From positions 1-5,913 of IMG/VR virus record IMGVR_UViG_2667527959_000008: a stretch of DNA of 5,913 nucleotides, one strand, 5' to 3'. The translations under genes and the position numbers were made by a program. This document shows, piece after piece, positions 56 through 5,311 of the stretch (positions are counted from its first letter, which is position 1; every line of letters starts with the position of its first letter). The stretch comes from a virus. Taxonomy: Duplodnaviria > Heunggongvirae > Uroviricota > Caudoviricetes. Below the pieces are notes generated by a model. The model had not been told where the DNA came from, ran no database searches, and worked only from the letters and a program-made list of their open reading frames with translations.

Positions 56-1432
56 TCATACGTCAGCCCCTTGTGCATATCGTCTGCCACGCGCAGCAGG
101 TGCATTTGATGCTGTGCAAATCTGTCTGGCTTCATCCTGGTCACATGCCACAAAGTGTCCGTTGCAGAACCGCTGGTAAACCGTACCAAGCGAGCCAAAA
201 CGGTTTTTCGTCACGATGATTTCAGCAAATGGTGCGGCGCTACTGTTCTCGTCATATACCGCTTCCCGATAGAGCATGATGATTGAGTCTGCGTCCTGCT
301 CAATGCTTCCTGAATCACGCAAATCTGCGTTTGTCGGGCGTTTGTTTGGTCGCTTCTCAACATCGCGCGAAAGCTGACTCAGGGAGATAACCGGTGTTTT
401 CAGGTCTTTCGCCATCGCCTTCAGGCTTCCGGAGATGTGAGCAATTGCGAGGTCGTTGCGGTCTGCTTTCGGCTTCTCAATCAGGCCAAGATAATCCGCC
501 ATGATGAGTGACAGGTTTGGATTTTCCTGTTTGTGCCGTTCTGCGATTGAGCGTATTTCTTCGACCGATAACCGCGATGCATCGACTACCCATACATCCA
601 AATCCGCAAGCTGATTCATGCCGTTAGCAACGCGTGCCCAGCCCTCGTCATCCATTGATGCAGGATTTCGCAGTACGCTAACCGACATCCTCCCGGCGTT
701 GGCAATGCTTCGCTCTGCAATCTGCAATGCGCTCATTTCCATTGAGAAAATCAATACTCCGCGCCGGACGTCAGAACCAGGAATAACGCGGCTTGCAACG
801 CCTTCGGCAATCTTCAGCGCCAGTTCGGTTTTCCCCATACCAGGACGAGCAGCGATTATCACCAGGTCTTCCGCGTTCATCCCTCCGGTGATGGCATCAA
901 GTTCTTCGATTCCGGTCTTCAGGGTATCTGACTCTTCTCCGTTCCTCAGACGCCTGTCAAGCGTGTCAGTGTAGTTGGTGATGATTTCCCCTAACCGTAC
1001 CGGTTTAACCTCGTCACGGGGCTTTCTGATGGCTGAAAGACGCTTTACAAGTTCATCCATCGCCTGACTCGATGCGTCGATGGTTCCGCTCTGAATTGGT
1101 TCACGCATTTCATCCATGATTTCCAGCACCAGACGGCGGTGATAGTTATCCGCGACCATTCCGGCATATCCCTTCAGGTTTGCGGCGCTCGGGCAGTTTT
1201 TGCTGGTCATCAGGATTGACGTGAAATGCTCCTCTCCGCACGCCTCGGCAACCATCAGCGCGTCGATTAGGTTTCTGTTTCTCGCCTGCTTGCGGATAAC
1301 CTCGAAGGCTTTCCGGTAGAGCGGAATTGAAAACGCTTCCGGCTCCAGTGTTGCCAGAACGTCACTGGCGGTTGGTGTTAATCCACCAATCAGCAGGCCA
1401 CCGATAACGCTCGCTTCGATATCCTGTTTCAT
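56..1432 (-). CDS. DnaB-family replicative DNA helicase (phage-encoded, P22 gene 12-like)
   Basis: 458-aa ORF with a DnaB-like N-terminal domain and a RecA-type ATPase core including Walker A (AARPGMGKT). Putative SD GGGGGA about 5 nt upstream of the ATG. The start ATG overlaps the stop of the upstream O-like gene (ATGA at 1429-1432), implying translational coupling. Confidence 0.9.
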
Positions 1433-2376
1433 GCAATCCCCCTGTCTGCAAACTTCCCTTCCCGAACTCCCGTTAACGAATCTTCCCTCAGCAGGTAATC
1501 AAAATCGGCCGTCCAGCCAGTGTCGTTGTCTCCGAAGTAAAACGGCTTGGCCTGATGTACAAACGCCCTGACATACGCTCTGAAACCGTCCACGTTTGGC
1601 GTTTTCAGTTGCGGGATGATTTTCTTCAGGCGGCGTTTGCGTTTCTCGTTGACCGCAACAGCGTGTGGCAGTCTGTCACCGACTTCGGTGTTGTAGGCGT
1701 TCAGGAAGGATTCGTAGTCGATTCGTTCTGCCTTGCGACGTTCATGTTTAACCTGCCCATCGCCTCCCCCATTGGGGGGTAGGGGGGTATTATTTATATT
1801 CTTGTTAATACCTTCTTGTTCATGATGTGCGGTTGTTTGTGCGGCTTCATGTGCGCTTTCATGTGCGGTATGTACGCTGAAAGCCGCGCCATTGCTGGCT
1901 TCATCATGTGCGGCATCATGTGCGGTTGTTTGTGCGGCTTCATGTGCGGGTGAATCGTCCATTTTTTGAGCATATTCATGGTAATTTGTGATGGTTATCA
2001 CGCGACCTTTTTGCTTCTCTCCATCAATGGAGATCATCCCCTCTTTCACAAAAACCTGAAGCATCCGCTCAACCTGATCACGGCTTGCTGGCTTGCCATG
2101 TCTGTCGCATAACTGAAGACCTAAATCAGCTGCTGTCACAACCAGTTGACCGGGTTGCAGATGCCATTCATGACCTTTGAAATTCGCTTTGTATGGCTTT
2201 CTGGCGGCATTCAGGAGAAGGTTTTCCCACAGGGTGCGAAGATAAACATCTTTCGCCCATGACTGTTTCAGAATGCTCCGGTACAACGGAATGTAGCCAG
2301 TTTTCTGGTTCTCCATCCTGTTGCTCCTGCGCTCGTGTGCGGCGCTGAAATCGTAGATTTTTGCTGTATTGCTCAT
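1429..2376 (-). CDS. Replication initiation protein, lambda O-like architecture (N-terminal DNA-binding domain, repeat-encoded linker, conserved phage C-terminal domain)
   Basis: 315-aa ORF starting MSNTAKI (lambda O starts MTNTAKI). The central part is encoded by the iteron array (repeated HEAAQTTAH peptide motif). It sits immediately upstream of, and coupled to, the helicase gene, in the position of lambda O / P22 gene 18. Confidence 0.8.
1789..1812. other. AT-rich segment flanking the iterons (candidate DNA-unwinding element of ori)
   Basis: TATTATTTATATTCTTGTTAATACC lies directly downstream (in gene orientation) of the iterons, the same order as iterons then AT-rich region in lambda ori. 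It is preceded by C5 (1766-1770) and two G6 runs (1774-1779, 1783-1788). Confidence 0.55.
1823..1949. repeat. Iteron array (putative ori) inside the O-like gene
   Basis: About 8 copies of TGTGCGG (one TGTGCGC) at 11-13 bp spacing in two clusters. A 31-bp block ATGTGCGGTTGTTTGTGCGGCTTCATGTGCG is repeated exactly, starting at 1824 and at 1918. Confidence 0.7.
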
Positions 2377-2378
2377 AA

Positions 2379-2651
2379 CTACCTGCCTTGACGAAAGACC
2401 TTAAGAACATCGTTAAACTGACTTACGGATATGTCTTCTTTGAGCAGCTTTTCCAGAAATGCGTTTGGAATGAACGTATATCCCTCCTCTTTTGGTAGAG
2501 ACGGGAGCAACGCCCTCGCCTCAGCCTTCAGAAGCTCAGTTCTGGCAACTTTCACAAAAGAGATTTGAGTTCTTTCATCAATGGAACGAAGGAAGCGCAA
2601 ACGCTTAGCTTCTTTGTGTGTATCAGGTGGATTAAAGCCTTTGTTTCGCAT
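2379..2651 (-). CDS. Hypothetical protein (90 aa) between cII and the O-like gene
   Basis: Start chosen at the internal ATG (2649-2651), preceded by GAGGT about 7 nt upstream and lying after the cII stop. The longer 146-aa reading from 2819 would overlap cII out of frame. The stop TAG (2379-2381) is 2 nt from the O-like ATG, suggesting coupling. No family recognised. Confidence 0.5.
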   Translation of the reverse strand: MRNKGFNPPDTHKEAKRLRFLRSIDERTQISFVKVARTELLKAEARALLPSLPKEEGYTFIPNAFLEKLLKEDISVSQFNDVLKVFRQGR

Positions 2652-2656
2652 ATAAT
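2651..2656 (+). promoter_or_regulatory. Candidate -10 element (TATAAT) of an OOP-like antisense promoter
   Basis: Perfect TATAAT on the plus strand just downstream of cII (in cII orientation), about 45 nt before a plus-strand intrinsic terminator. No convincing -35 (TGGATT at 2628-2633 is the best). Confidence 0.4.
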
Positions 2657-2662
2657 TACCTC

Positions 2663-2730
2663 GTTGGATGTTGTTAAAATTCCATTTGTATTTGATCAGA
2701 ACGCTCGGTCTTGCACACCGGGCGTTTTTT
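2663..2730 (+). ncRNA. Putative OOP-like antisense RNA overlapping the 3' end of cII
   Basis: Predicted transcript of about 68 nt from the TATAAT at 2651-2656 to the terminator at 2701-2730, antisense to the last ~55 nt of cII (stop at 2674-2676). This matches the known arrangement of lambda OOP RNA (77 nt, ending within cII). Confidence 0.45.
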
Positions 2731-2973
2731 ATTGGTGATTTCATCAAGCGCATACTTAAAAGCCCTGCTAATCGGACTGATGTCTGATGCCATTCCGAAA
2801 GCACACAAGACCGAAGCAATAAACCTCCAGTCCGTTCTGCTTATCTTCGATTCATGACAGCCAATCATCTTTGCCAGACCGCGCTGGGTAAGCGTTGACA
2901 GGTTGATGAGTAAATCAGTTTCAGCGCGATCAATTTCTCGCTGTGTTGGCTTGCTGTAACTTGCTTGTGTCAT
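2674..2973 (-). CDS. cII: Transcriptional activator CII
   Basis: 99-aa ORF whose C-terminus (ITNKKRPVCKTERSDQIQMEF) closely matches lambda CII (ILTNKKRPAATERSEQIQMEF). Contains an HTH region; SD GGAGA about 8 nt upstream of the ATG; located directly downstream of cro. Confidence 0.9.
   Translation of the reverse strand: MTQASYSKPTQREIDRAETDLLINLSTLTQRGLAKMIGCHESKISRTDWRFIASVLCAFGMASDISPISRAFKYALDEITNKKRPVCKTERSDQIQMEF
2701..2730 (+). terminator. Plus-strand intrinsic terminator inside the cII 3' coding region (putative OOP terminator)
   Basis: Stem 2702-2708 CGCTCGG pairs with 2718-2724 CCGGGCG (6 Watson-Crick pairs plus one G-U), 9-nt loop, followed by T6 (2725-2730). Confidence 0.55.
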
Positions 2974-3094: not shown

Positions 3095-3325
3095 TTACAT
3101 AACAAACTGCTGTTTACCGATACGGCGAATCTGTGCTGCTGAGTACTTGCCGCCTGATGCCTTGGCGATCTTATCCGCATATTCGGTTTCACCAGTGAAC
3201 TCGGTACGCGGCAGAGAACCACGCTCAAGCCACTTATAGATGGCTTTTGGCGTAAGTCCACAAACATCAGCCACAACAGAAACTCGAACGGATTTGATAA
3301 CTTCTCCAAACGTAACTTCGTTCAT
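3095..3325 (-). CDS. cro: Cro-like HTH repressor
   Basis: 76-aa ORF with a helix-turn-helix segment (VADVCGLTPKAIYKWLERG). Strong SD AGGAGA 5 nt upstream of the ATG; divergent from cI across an operator region; followed by cII. Confidence 0.75.
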   Translation of the reverse strand: MNEVTFGEVIKSVRVSVVADVCGLTPKAIYKWLERGSLPRTEFTGETEYADKIAKASGGKYSAAQIRRIGKQQFVM

Positions 3326-3397: not shown

Positions 3398-3412
3398 TGA
3401 ACTTATGGTTCA
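3398..3412. promoter_or_regulatory. Operator OR (cI-proximal copy), palindrome TGAAC-N5-GTTCA
   Basis: TGAACTTATGGTTCA, identical to 3341-3355. It contains the ATG (3405-3407) proposed as the cI start. Confidence 0.7.
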
Positions 3413-4112
3413 ACAGAAAGAGCGTGAAACTTTCTCGCAGAGGCTTGCGCTGGCCTGTGATAAAGCGGGATTACCTTTGCATGGTAGGCAGGCTGATTTA
3501 GCTGTCAGGCTTAAGGTCACACCAAAAGCCATTAGTAAATGGTTCAACGGGGAGTCAATACCAAGAAAAGACAAGATGGAATCTCTGGCTTCGGTGCTGG
3601 GAACTACTGCTGCATATCTGCATGGCTATGCTGATTATGACGGTATCACGGTAAATCATCTATCAAGATCAAATGATTCTTATCGTGTTGATGTATTGGA
3701 TGTTCAGGCGAGCGCCGGGCCAGGAACCATGGTTTCCAATGAATTTATAGAAAAGATAAGAGCAATTGAATATACGCCCGAGCAGGCAAGAATTTTATTT
3801 AATGGAAGGCCACAGGAAAGCGTAAAAGTCATCACGGTTCGCGGTGACAGCATGGAGGGAACCATCAATCCGGGAGATGAGATCTTTGTTGATGTATCCA
3901 TAACCTATTTTGATGGAGATGGCATTTATGTGTTTGTATACGGGAAAACAATGCACGTTAAGCGCCTGCAAATGCAAAAGAACAGGCTTGCCGTCATCTC
4001 TGACAATGCCGCTTATGATCGATGGTACATAGAAGAAGGTGAAGAAGAGCAACTTCACATTCTAGCCAAAGTCCTCATTAGGCAGTCAATCGATTACAAG
4101 CGATTCGGATAA
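3405..4112 (+). CDS. cI: CI-type prophage repressor (N-terminal HTH, C-terminal S24/LexA-like autopeptidase domain)
   Basis: HTH segment (QADLAVRLKVTPKAISKWFNG), Ala-Gly cleavage site (QASAGPG), catalytic Ser in RGDSMEG and Lys in HVKRL. The ORF is open from 3240, but that part overlaps cro; in-frame ATGs at 3348, 3360 and 3405 are all possible, and 3405 is chosen because it follows the operators and promoter. Confidence 0.85.
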   Translation: MVQQKERETFSQRLALACDKAGLPLHGRQADLAVRLKVTPKAISKWFNGESIPRKDKMESLASVLGTTAAYLHGYADYDGITVNHLSRSNDSYRVDVLDVQASAGPGTMVSNEFIEKIRAIEYTPEQARILFNGRPQESVKVITVRGDSMEGTINPGDEIFVDVSITYFDGDGIYVFVYGKTMHVKRLQMQKNRLAVISDNAAYDRWYIEEGEEEQLHILAKVLIRQSIDYKRFG

Positions 4113-4388: not shown

Positions 4389-4562
4389 ATGGATAATCAG
4401 GATAATGAGTTAAGAAAGGTTGTTCAGGAACTTGCTGATGAAGAAGGCATCAGCTTTTCCGATGCCCTAGATGTTTCGATTAAAGCGCTGCGTTATGAGG
4501 TAGAGCGCAGAAAATCGTTTAACGGTGAAGCTGCTTGTGATGGCTCTGCAATTACTTCTTAG
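4389..4562 (+). CDS. Small acidic hypothetical protein (57 aa)
   Basis: ORF MDNQDNELRKVVQELADEEGISFSDALDVSIKALRYEVERRKSFNGEAACDGSAITS, absent from the supplied track (presumably below its length cut-off). Weak SD (AAGAGA 8-13 nt upstream). About 13 acidic versus 7 basic residues. Its 3' end overlaps the convergent minus-strand gene by 11 nt. Confidence 0.35.
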   Translation: MDNQDNELRKVVQELADEEGISFSDALDVSIKALRYEVERRKSFNGEAACDGSAITS

Positions 4563-4830
4563 CCAAGTACCAAGAGGTGTCTGCGGCTTCGGAAACCAGT
4601 ACGTAATAGCTTTGCTTTACACTACTAGCTATACCTCTGACTTCCTCTCTAACGTTATATGCAGTTGATGTTTTTACGGTTGTATATTCAGCTGTTGGGA
4701 GGTTAAACCAAGTGCCATTACCATCCTGTATCTCACGCGAATAACCCTTTGCTTTCATCTTTTCATGAAGATTTTCATAGTCTTCAGAATCAGCGCCGCG
4801 CAACTCAACTCGAACAATATATCTTGCCAT
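4552..4830 (-). CDS. Hypothetical protein (92 aa), own promoter, transcribed opposite to the early-left genes
   Basis: Start chosen at the ATG at 4828-4830 (MARYIVRVELRGADSEDYENLHEK...), preceded by AGGA about 9 nt upstream. The 139-aa reading from 4971 would cover the promoter, repeats and terminator hairpin. Predicted alternating beta/alpha small protein. It faintly recalls a prophage-associated DUF family, but I cannot name it with confidence. Confidence 0.6.
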   Translation of the reverse strand: MARYIVRVELRGADSEDYENLHEKMKAKGYSREIQDGNGTWFNLPTAEYTTVKTSTAYNVREEVRGIASSVKQSYYVLVSEAADTSWYLAKK

Positions 4831-5101: not shown

Positions 5102-5311
5102 ATGAGTGATTTGGAGTTGGGCTTAAAGATATACGCATTATGGTTTGTCGGGACGTTTCTGCTCGGCATAGCAATCAACTCGCTGACGAAAAAAGAACAT
5201 CGCCAGCCAATTTCAAAACTAGCCATTGACCATGTACGCATGTCTTCCGCAATAACCATTGTGGGCCTGATTGTGTGCGGTATGGTCTGGTTCTTATTCA
5301 AGGTGGTGTGA
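5102..5311 (+). CDS. Small membrane protein (69 aa, two predicted TM helices)
   Basis: Strong SD AAGAGGA 4-5 nt upstream of the ATG. Hydrophobic segments IYALWFVGTFLLGIAI and AITIVGLIVCGMVWFLF. Stop TGA (5309-5311) is 1 nt before the next ATG (5313). Confidence 0.6.
   Translation: MSDLELGLKIYALWFVGTFLLGIAINSLTKKEHRQPISKLAIDHVRMSSAITIVGLIVCGMVWFLFKVV

Follow-up and report, generated by a model that had tools for sequence, protein, structure and literature searches.

Positions 1788-1950 of the stretch of phage DNA analysed here (5,913 nt in full, hereafter the window) are probably the replication origin of the phage, inside that part of its own initiator gene which codes for the interdomain linker; we put the probability of this reading at about 0.8. 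Judged from sequence comparison, the repeat array at this position appears to be of the lambdoid origin-in-initiator kind; the architecture of its sites is distinct, and a switch of specificity by a single residue is predicted for it. The observations that bear on this reading are the anatomy of the region, the DNA-level selection on the repeat cores, the co-variation of the cores with residue 100 of the initiator and the modular mosaic of the gene.

Gene content of the window

The window covers the genes for immunity and replication of a lambdoid phage or prophage (Table 1). Scanned against Rfam, it gave no match at or above a family's gathering score. The O-like protein matched Pfam Phage_rep_O (PF04492) over residues 20-132 (E 3.3e-15; 56.8 bits against a cutoff of 28.7) as well as PHROG 345 ("replication initiation O-like"), and the 3' end of its gene overlaps the helicase gene by 4 nt. 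The gene was 97.6-98.5% identical to the O genes of CUS-3, of several further E. coli podophages and of about 50 records of Stx2a-converting phages. CUS-3, a P22-like Lederbergvirus, was the closest phage (98.5% identity to its gene O), and its record carries no origin annotation.

Table 1 Features of the window, with coordinates counted from its first nucleotide.
Feature	Position	Strand	Basis
DnaB-like replicative helicase gene	56-1432	-	Pfam DnaB_C (E 8.7e-78) and DnaB N-terminal domain
O-like replication initiator gene, 315 aa, holding the proposed origin	1429-2376	-	ORF, Pfam and PHROG
O C-terminal domain, HK97 gp54 type, proposed partner of the DnaB-like helicase	1432-1787	-	95% DNA identity
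C5/G6/G6 runs (plus strand; C6-TA-C6-AAT-G5 on the coding strand), Pro/Gly-rich hinge	1766-1787	-	
AT-rich tract, proposed DNA-unwinding element and mosaic junction	1788-1824	-	23% GC
Iteron cluster 2, four units	1825-1869	-	Plus-strand TGTGCGG at 1826, 1838 and 1862; TGTGCGC at 1850
Central spacer, 33 bp, constant length	1870-1902	-	Comparison of 49 divergent genes
Iteron cluster 1, four 12-bp units with minus-strand CCGCACA cores	1903-1950	-	Plus-strand TGTGCGG at 1907, 1919, 1931 and 1943
AT-rich flank that precedes the array in gene orientation	1951-2000	-	30% GC
N-terminal winged-helix DNA-binding domain of O (aa 20-132), proposed iteron reader	1981-2319	-	Pfam and AlphaFold
Asp100 codon, start of the predicted recognition helix	2077-2079	-	Co-variation with core base 5
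Small gene, function not assigned	2379-2654	-	
cII	2674-2973	-	
cro-like gene	3095-3325	-	
cI-type repressor gene	3405-4112	+	

Anatomy of the repeat array and the AT-rich DNA

Seven exact copies of TGTGCGG lie between 1826 and 1949, and a TGTGCGC with one mismatch, in register with them, completes a set of eight units, arranged as two clusters of four with a 12-bp period at nt 427-552 of the O gene. An earlier note, made from the letters of the window, had counted about eight TGTGCGG iterons in two clusters; the clusters and the number of units were right, while only seven of the eight are exact. The 31-bp exact duplication that it described was found at 1825-1855 and 1918-1948, and the span that it gave, 1766-1950, takes in every element that it named. 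Across the whole window and both strands, TGTGCGG occurs nine times against 0.83 expected, a count of nine or more being reached in none of 200 shuffles. The 40-kb genome of CUS-3 as a whole contains 11 copies of CCGCACA against 5.1 expected, seven of them inside the 124-bp array, and no second cluster of the motif. A TGTACGC at 1871 is out of register and forms part of the spacer between the clusters. The CCGCACA near the 5' end of the O gene (2336-2342) was considered as an extra site and rejected as a chance occurrence, being kept in 0 of 48 other family members, and the copy at 5274 was likewise treated as chance.

On the gene strand the core reads CCGCACAT, with CCGCGCAT as its A-to-G form, and the core CCGC(A/G)CAT spans codon boundaries. 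As the period of the sites is a multiple of three, the array also reads as (Ala-His-x-x)n in the interdomain linker. The units are head-to-tail direct repeats without dyad symmetry; the array of the window contains no inverted core, and 47 of 49 divergent genes (see below) have no core on the opposite strand.

The array is followed, in gene orientation, by DNA that is 23% GC (1787-1825) against a window mean of 48% (sd 9% in 40-nt windows), in agreement with the AT-rich tract announced by the earlier note. Within the coding DNA of O and the helicase, a GC content of 27.5% or less was reached at two places only, 1784-1830 and 1961-2000. The latter belongs to the flank at 1951-2000, in which several synonymous positions are invariant among the 49 divergent genes. 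Overall, the order is that of ori-lambda, with the repeats right after the Phage_rep_O domain and AT-rich DNA next. The lambda arrangement proposed before thus holds for order and position and fails for the site architecture, which consists of 12-bp direct repeats around a 33-bp spacer.

Conservation among relatives

One genome per bacterial species (GTDB) was scanned, which yielded 53 loci with relatives of the N-domain, in Enterobacterales, at 61-88% identity. The divergent set used below (n = 49) comprises 46 full-length genes from these species genomes, the window, Klebsiella phage Mulock and a Yersinia phage, and a second, separately collected set from IMG/VR comprises 119 distinct sequences. 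About 170 distinct relatives, from prophages of Enterobacterales and from phages, have one common layout. In all 49 divergent genes, two to four units, the first of them ten codons past the N-domain, are followed by a spacer of exactly 33 bp, three to four further units, the 9-nt sequence CATGAACAA that opens the AT-rich tract and is itself invariant in 49 of 49, and then AT-rich DNA. Third-position conservation in the spacer exceeds the baseline. A tblastn search (E 1e-3) found no N-domain of the window's type in any of the lambdoid phages that have been classic objects of study.

Among 65 distinct near-identical relatives, the AT-rich tract contains a single variable site and the array region is the most polymorphic stretch of the O gene. 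The changes fall mainly between the cores and in the spacer between the clusters, and the cores themselves show rare single variants.

More distant N-domains keep the two-cluster design. In Salmonella phage S.Inf 5-2 (52% identical) and Enterobacter phage ENT1 (47%), two clusters, a spacer encoding KPS(N/A)GAAL and an AT-rich tract precede the C-terminal module, and the unit sequences differ from those of the window. An initiator-origin pair predicts just this, namely that reader and sites both diverge while the scaffold stays the same.

Selection on the DNA and on the protein

The 339 units of the 49 genes have the consensus xCC-GCR-CAT-nnn. The third base of codon 1 is the best-conserved base of the unit (C in 337 of 339 units; 1.95 bits), while the first base of the same codon carries 0.3 bits, leaving the residue to vary among P, A, T, S and G. 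The replicate set gave the same picture for the third base, with C in 844 of 848 units. For comparison, the third base of conserved 4- to 6-fold-degenerate codons in the N-domain averages 0.66 bits, with 8% of them reaching 1.9 bits, and outside the array in the same genes the share of CCC, GCC, TCC and ACC within their codon families is only 16-39%. A fixed synonymous third base next to a free first base in the same codon reflects selection on DNA and not on protein; the repeat cores are under DNA-level selection.

An alternative explanation is that the repeats are a coding repeat and nothing else, a flexible His/Ala-rich linker of the form (AHxx)n with no role as DNA, the origin being elsewhere. 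The period of exactly four codons is consistent with this, as is the well-conserved Ala-His dipeptide (CAT in 263 of 339 units). In addition, the spacer peptide KPSNGAAL outlasts synonymous change in the distant relative ENT1, a sign that the linker may be under some constraint as protein. Protein-level selection, however, accounts for none of three patterns: the most conserved base of the unit is synonymous with the first base of its codon nearly free, the A or G at another synonymous position is the same throughout a locus and changes together with a residue of the DNA-binding domain (see below), and His is sometimes replaced by Leu, Gln or Asn while the CCGCAC core stays. We therefore consider a pure coding repeat very unlikely. 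The pattern is that of a putative DNA recognition site overprinted on a tolerant protein linker.

Co-variation of the core with residue 100 of the initiator

Base 5 of the core is A or G and occupies the synonymous position of the Ala codon. Its allele is uniform per locus, with minority units numbering 3 of 270 in the 49-gene set and 1 of 709 in the IMG/VR set. When the 49 N-domains were aligned, residue 100 was Asp in 19 of 19 loci with CCGCACA cores and His in 30 of 30 loci with CCGCGCA or CCGAGCA cores. The same association was found in the IMG/VR set, in which Asp goes with A (56/56) and His with G (63/63), or 119 of 119 sequences. Position 82 of O also segregates with the core type (Ala against Ser, Thr or Leu). 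At least five switches of type were counted on a neighbour-joining tree of the 49 N-domains from which columns 100 and 82 had been left out. The suggestion that an iteron sequence of its own implies a distinct initiator specificity is in keeping with this co-variation of the core allele with a residue of the predicted recognition helix.

An AlphaFold model of O residues 1-138 showed a winged helix at moderate confidence (mean pLDDT 76.5), with two helices (82-88 and 99-111) ahead of a wing formed by a beta-hairpin (115-129). In this model the helix at 99-111, in which residue 100 comes second, directly precedes the wing and so takes the position of the recognition helix. The best fold matches were winged-helix regulators (CRP, MarR, ArsR and CodY) with weak E-values, and a search of the O protein against PDB sequences gave no match at E up to 1. 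Contacts between Asp and adenine and between His and guanine are chemically plausible. Codon 100 lies about 130 bp from the array, and recombinational co-inheritance alone could give the co-variation without functional coupling.

The binding mode of lambda O is not simply transferable to these sites because they have neither dyad symmetry nor a spacing of about 20 bp. Tentatively, and with the odds against it, a mode specific to the subfamily may be suggested, in which initiator monomers would line up head to tail along the 12-bp sites, as two arrays flanking a conserved centre, and Asp100 or His100 would read base 5 as A or G, respectively. In the same reading, the 33-bp spacer at that centre may serve an additional factor as its site, perhaps one encoded by the host. 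This would give two classes of origin specificity with at least five switches among prophages of Enterobacterales, including the Stx2a phages of E. coli O157:H7.

Mosaic structure of the O gene

DNA searches against HK97-type and Mulock-type genes placed a break in O homology within the AT-rich tract, at 1793-1803. On one side, positions 1429-1803 (the C-terminal half with the G/C runs) share about 95% identity with HK97, ST104, mEp213 and other phages, whose O genes have unrelated N-termini and no CCGCACA. On the other side, positions 1793-2368 (the N-domain and the repeats) match Klebsiella phage Mulock and a Yersinia phage at 75-80% identity, and in these two phages O has a lambda-like C-terminus and is followed by a lambda-P-like loader gene. 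Most relatives of the N-domain likewise combine a lambda-type C-terminus with a P-like loader, and the combination with an HK97-type C-terminus and a DnaB-like helicase was found only in the window type and in one Scandinavium prophage. With the homology split at the AT-rich tract, the N-domain and the repeats move together as one module, and the C-terminus with the helicase or loader as another. This agrees with the lambda O model, in which iteron binding falls to the N-domain and partner binding to the C-domain.

A mosaic junction that adjoins the array could also mean that the array is a DNA element other than the initiation site, either a set of O sites for autoregulation or copy control (by titration or handcuffing) or a recombination hotspot for module exchange. 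Close relatives do show rearranged units and a 93-bp deletion between the 31-bp duplicates, and two clusters around a spacer resemble paired site sets. We nevertheless consider this explanation unlikely, given that an invariant AT-rich tract abuts the array, that the array's position is exactly equivalent to that of the experimentally defined ori-lambda and that the CUS-3 genome offers no other cluster of the motif.

The G and C runs

The C5 run and the two G6 runs that the earlier note had seen within the coding frame were located at 1766-1770, 1774-1779 and 1782-1787. They are in frame, encode PLPPNGGG on the gene strand and belong to the start of the HK97-type C-terminal module. The earlier suggestion that they are a frameshift site or a structural element was not supported. 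As a regulatory hypothesis it would make the C6/C6/G5 runs of the coding strand a site of programmed slippage, a phase-variable site or an origin hairpin, with slippage yielding a truncated, DNA-binding-only O that regulates replication. In two of 119 related viral contigs the first C run is indeed one C shorter, and O is thereby cut to 224 aa, ending immediately beyond the proposed origin. A similar C5..C5..G5 motif also follows the AT-rich tract in ENT1 and in a further relative (L126), whose C-terminal domains are unrelated.

However, the comparison of run lengths proposed earlier turned up these two contigs alone. The in-frame run length is kept in the other 117, there are no +1 variants among the 119, and neither the second C run nor the G run changes in length. 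Both -1 contigs are draft-genome prophages, in which real decay and homopolymer sequencing error are indistinguishable. In HK97 and some relatives the runs are shortened by synonymous changes (ACC CCC TTA CCC CCT AAC GGG GGC), and a locus with a homologous C-terminus and helicase (L091) lacks the C5..C5..G5 motif altogether. A shifted frame stops after about 30 codons, and no ORF of at least 40 aa follows the runs in the other minus-strand frames. The candidate C5/G5 hairpin was rejected, as its single-stranded DNA folding energy (-6.6 kcal/mol) is no better than that of shuffled sequences (z -0.8); its 76-nt context scored z about -2. We regard a regulatory role of the runs as highly improbable. 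They are ordinary codons of the Pro/Gly hinge and a minor mutational weak point.

Proposed mechanism and significance

For the region as a replication origin, three steps are inferred by analogy with lambda: that O binds the sites, that the AT-rich tract unwinds and that the helicase is recruited. The winged-helix N-domain of O would bind the eight head-to-tail 12-bp sites through the core CCGCACAT. A nucleoprotein complex on the two four-site clusters, with their fixed 33-bp spacer, would then destabilise the adjacent AT-rich tract (1788-1824). The C-domain of O would next recruit the phage's DnaB-like helicase, encoded immediately downstream, and not a loader of the lambda P type. The second AT-rich and conserved flank (1951-2000) counts against fixing 1788-1824 as the unwinding flank, and the assignment is accordingly put forward as a proposal.

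Among the sequenced Stx2a-converting phages of E. coli O157:H7, many have this type of O and origin. It also occurs in CUS-3, a phage for O-acetylation of the K1 capsule, and in other P22-like phages, with related versions across prophages of Enterobacterales. Replication of Stx phages has been reported to be needed for effective toxin production (PMC7466680), and the published origin work that we found covers the lambda-like type only. In a literature search, with most subscription journals outside its scope, no earlier description of the CCGCACAT iteron type was found, and earlier publication is possible. The array would be a clean natural case of overlapping protein and DNA codes, in which synonymous positions carry the putative binding site, and the predicted rule of one residue for one base gives directly testable predictions.

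Comparison with known systems

Iteron plasmid origins (pPS10, RK2, F and R6K) likewise combine direct repeats, a winged-helix Rep initiator and an adjoining AT-rich unwinding element. Their iterons are typically 17-22 bp long and lie outside the rep gene, with copy control by handcuffing, and no homology between plasmid Rep proteins and the window O was seen.

Among phages, P22 (gene 18/gene 12) and phage L (gene 18) share with the window an O-like initiator followed by a phage DnaB-type helicase. In both, the origin has been proposed to lie in repeats within the initiator gene; P22 has four, each about 20 bp long, and phage L has six imprecise 11-bp repeats, TGTCCAACGGA (PMC8022706). The window differs from them in repeat sequence, copy number and the two-cluster layout. 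The link to P22 gp18 runs through names only: HK97 gp54 is annotated as "similar to P22 Gp18", and genes 18 and 12 of ST104 match the C-terminal part at 95%. In HK97 itself (gp54 as O and gp55 as the DnaB-like protein), the C-terminal 125 residues with the hinge, together with the helicase, are about 95% identical to the window at the DNA level, whereas the N-domain is unrelated and CCGCACA and CGCACA are absent throughout.

The closest parallel in arrangement is ori-lambda, with its variants in the Stx phages 933W and P27. It too lies inside the initiator gene, between the N-terminal DNA-binding and the C-terminal partner-binding domains, and it too has multiple initiator sites followed by an AT-rich tract, with N-domain and sites forming a specificity module. 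The number of initiator sites varies by phage, from four in lambda to six in Stx phages (PMC7466680). Lambda has four annotated iterons at gene nt 349-433, each an 18-bp site with dyad symmetry (ATCCCTCAAAACGAGGGA or a variant of it). An A-rich tract comes next, and the spacings of 20, 24 and 23 bp put the iterons in varying reading frames. In contrast to these 18-19 bp sites with a dyad, the sites of the window are 12-bp direct repeats, in phase with the frame, twice as many and split by a spacer. In sequence, the window N-domain hardly resembles lambda O (BLASTP E 0.005 over 69 aa), and where the C-terminus of lambda O pairs with P, that of the window O is proposed to pair with the DnaB-like helicase. 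The textbook arrangement is extended by this origin type, not overturned.

Constraint and variation in the iteron array

The spacer between the two iteron clusters of the O-like initiator gene had the same length in all 49 divergent O genes, and in this set its conservation at third codon positions exceeded the baseline. Its peptide, KPSNGAAL or KPSAGAAL, was kept in the related locus L005 and in Enterobacter phage ENT1 (L139), whose N-domains are just 47-52% identical and whose iterons differ. Judged from these sequence comparisons, the spacer may constitute a further binding site or encode a functional linker peptide. Several synonymous positions were also unchanged across the 49 genes in the flank on the upstream side of the array (CAAAAAAT.GAC.ATTTACCC); this flank is AT-rich, so that the array is bordered by AT-rich DNA on both sides, whereas in lambda an AT-rich tract is found on one side only.

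The array itself has been rearranged among relatives. A natural in-frame deletion of 93 bp between the two 31-bp duplicates was identified in IMGVR_UViG_2778261458_000005 (L080; O from locus position 1501); it shortens O to 284 aa and reduces the iteron units to three, which adjoin the AT-rich tract. In other relatives the units were reshuffled with no change in length. A degenerate unit, CCGAGCAT, which encodes Glu-His, accounted for 69 of the 339 units and was confined to loci of the His100/GCG type (the G-type loci of L086-L134; types named for O residue 100 and the codon that holds base 5 of the iteron core), never occurring in the Asp100/GCA type.

C/G runs and the start of the N-domain

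The first C6 run was one C short in two prophage contigs, IMGVR_UViG_2529293142_000029 (L006) and IMGVR_UViG_2534682161_000017 (L009), which truncates O at 224 aa; further differences between the two contigs in the rest of the array show that they are not duplicates of one sequence. A C5-6..C5-6..G5 motif (ACCCCCCTTACCCCCCAGGGGG; CCCCCTTAATCCCCCGATGGGGG) followed the AT-rich tract in ENT1 and in an uncultured Gammaproteobacteria MAG (L126), and the C-terminal domains past it were unrelated to that of the window; the related locus L091 has a homologous C-terminus, yet lacks the motif.

At the start of the O N-domain, the codons of three conserved residues, one Arg, one Pro and one Leu, carried an invariant third-position G in 44 relatives, in which the third position of the remaining conserved four- to sixfold-degenerate codons was mostly free. 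From this codon pattern, an extra DNA- or RNA-level constraint appears possible.

Features in and around O

Feature	Position	Strand	Remarks
Inter-cluster spacer	1870-1902		33 bp
Second AT-rich stretch	1951-2000		upstream side of array; 30% GC
O codons ~20-32	~2280-2320		invariant third-position G
O stop/helicase start overlap	1429-1432		4 nt shared
91-aa gene	2379-2654	-	between cII and O; PHROG 2519, unknown function, E 2e-57
Small gene beyond cI	4552-4830	-	PHROG 8894, unknown function
Small gene beyond cI	5102-5311	+	PHROG 25975, unknown function

Neighbouring genes

The overlap of the O stop codon with the helicase start codon suggests that translation of the helicase is coupled to that of the initiator. 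For both small genes on the far side of cI, a role in lysogenic conversion or exclusion is possible. The 91-aa gene had no Pfam match; the equivalent position in HK97 is occupied by gp53, an annotated gene with no stated function.
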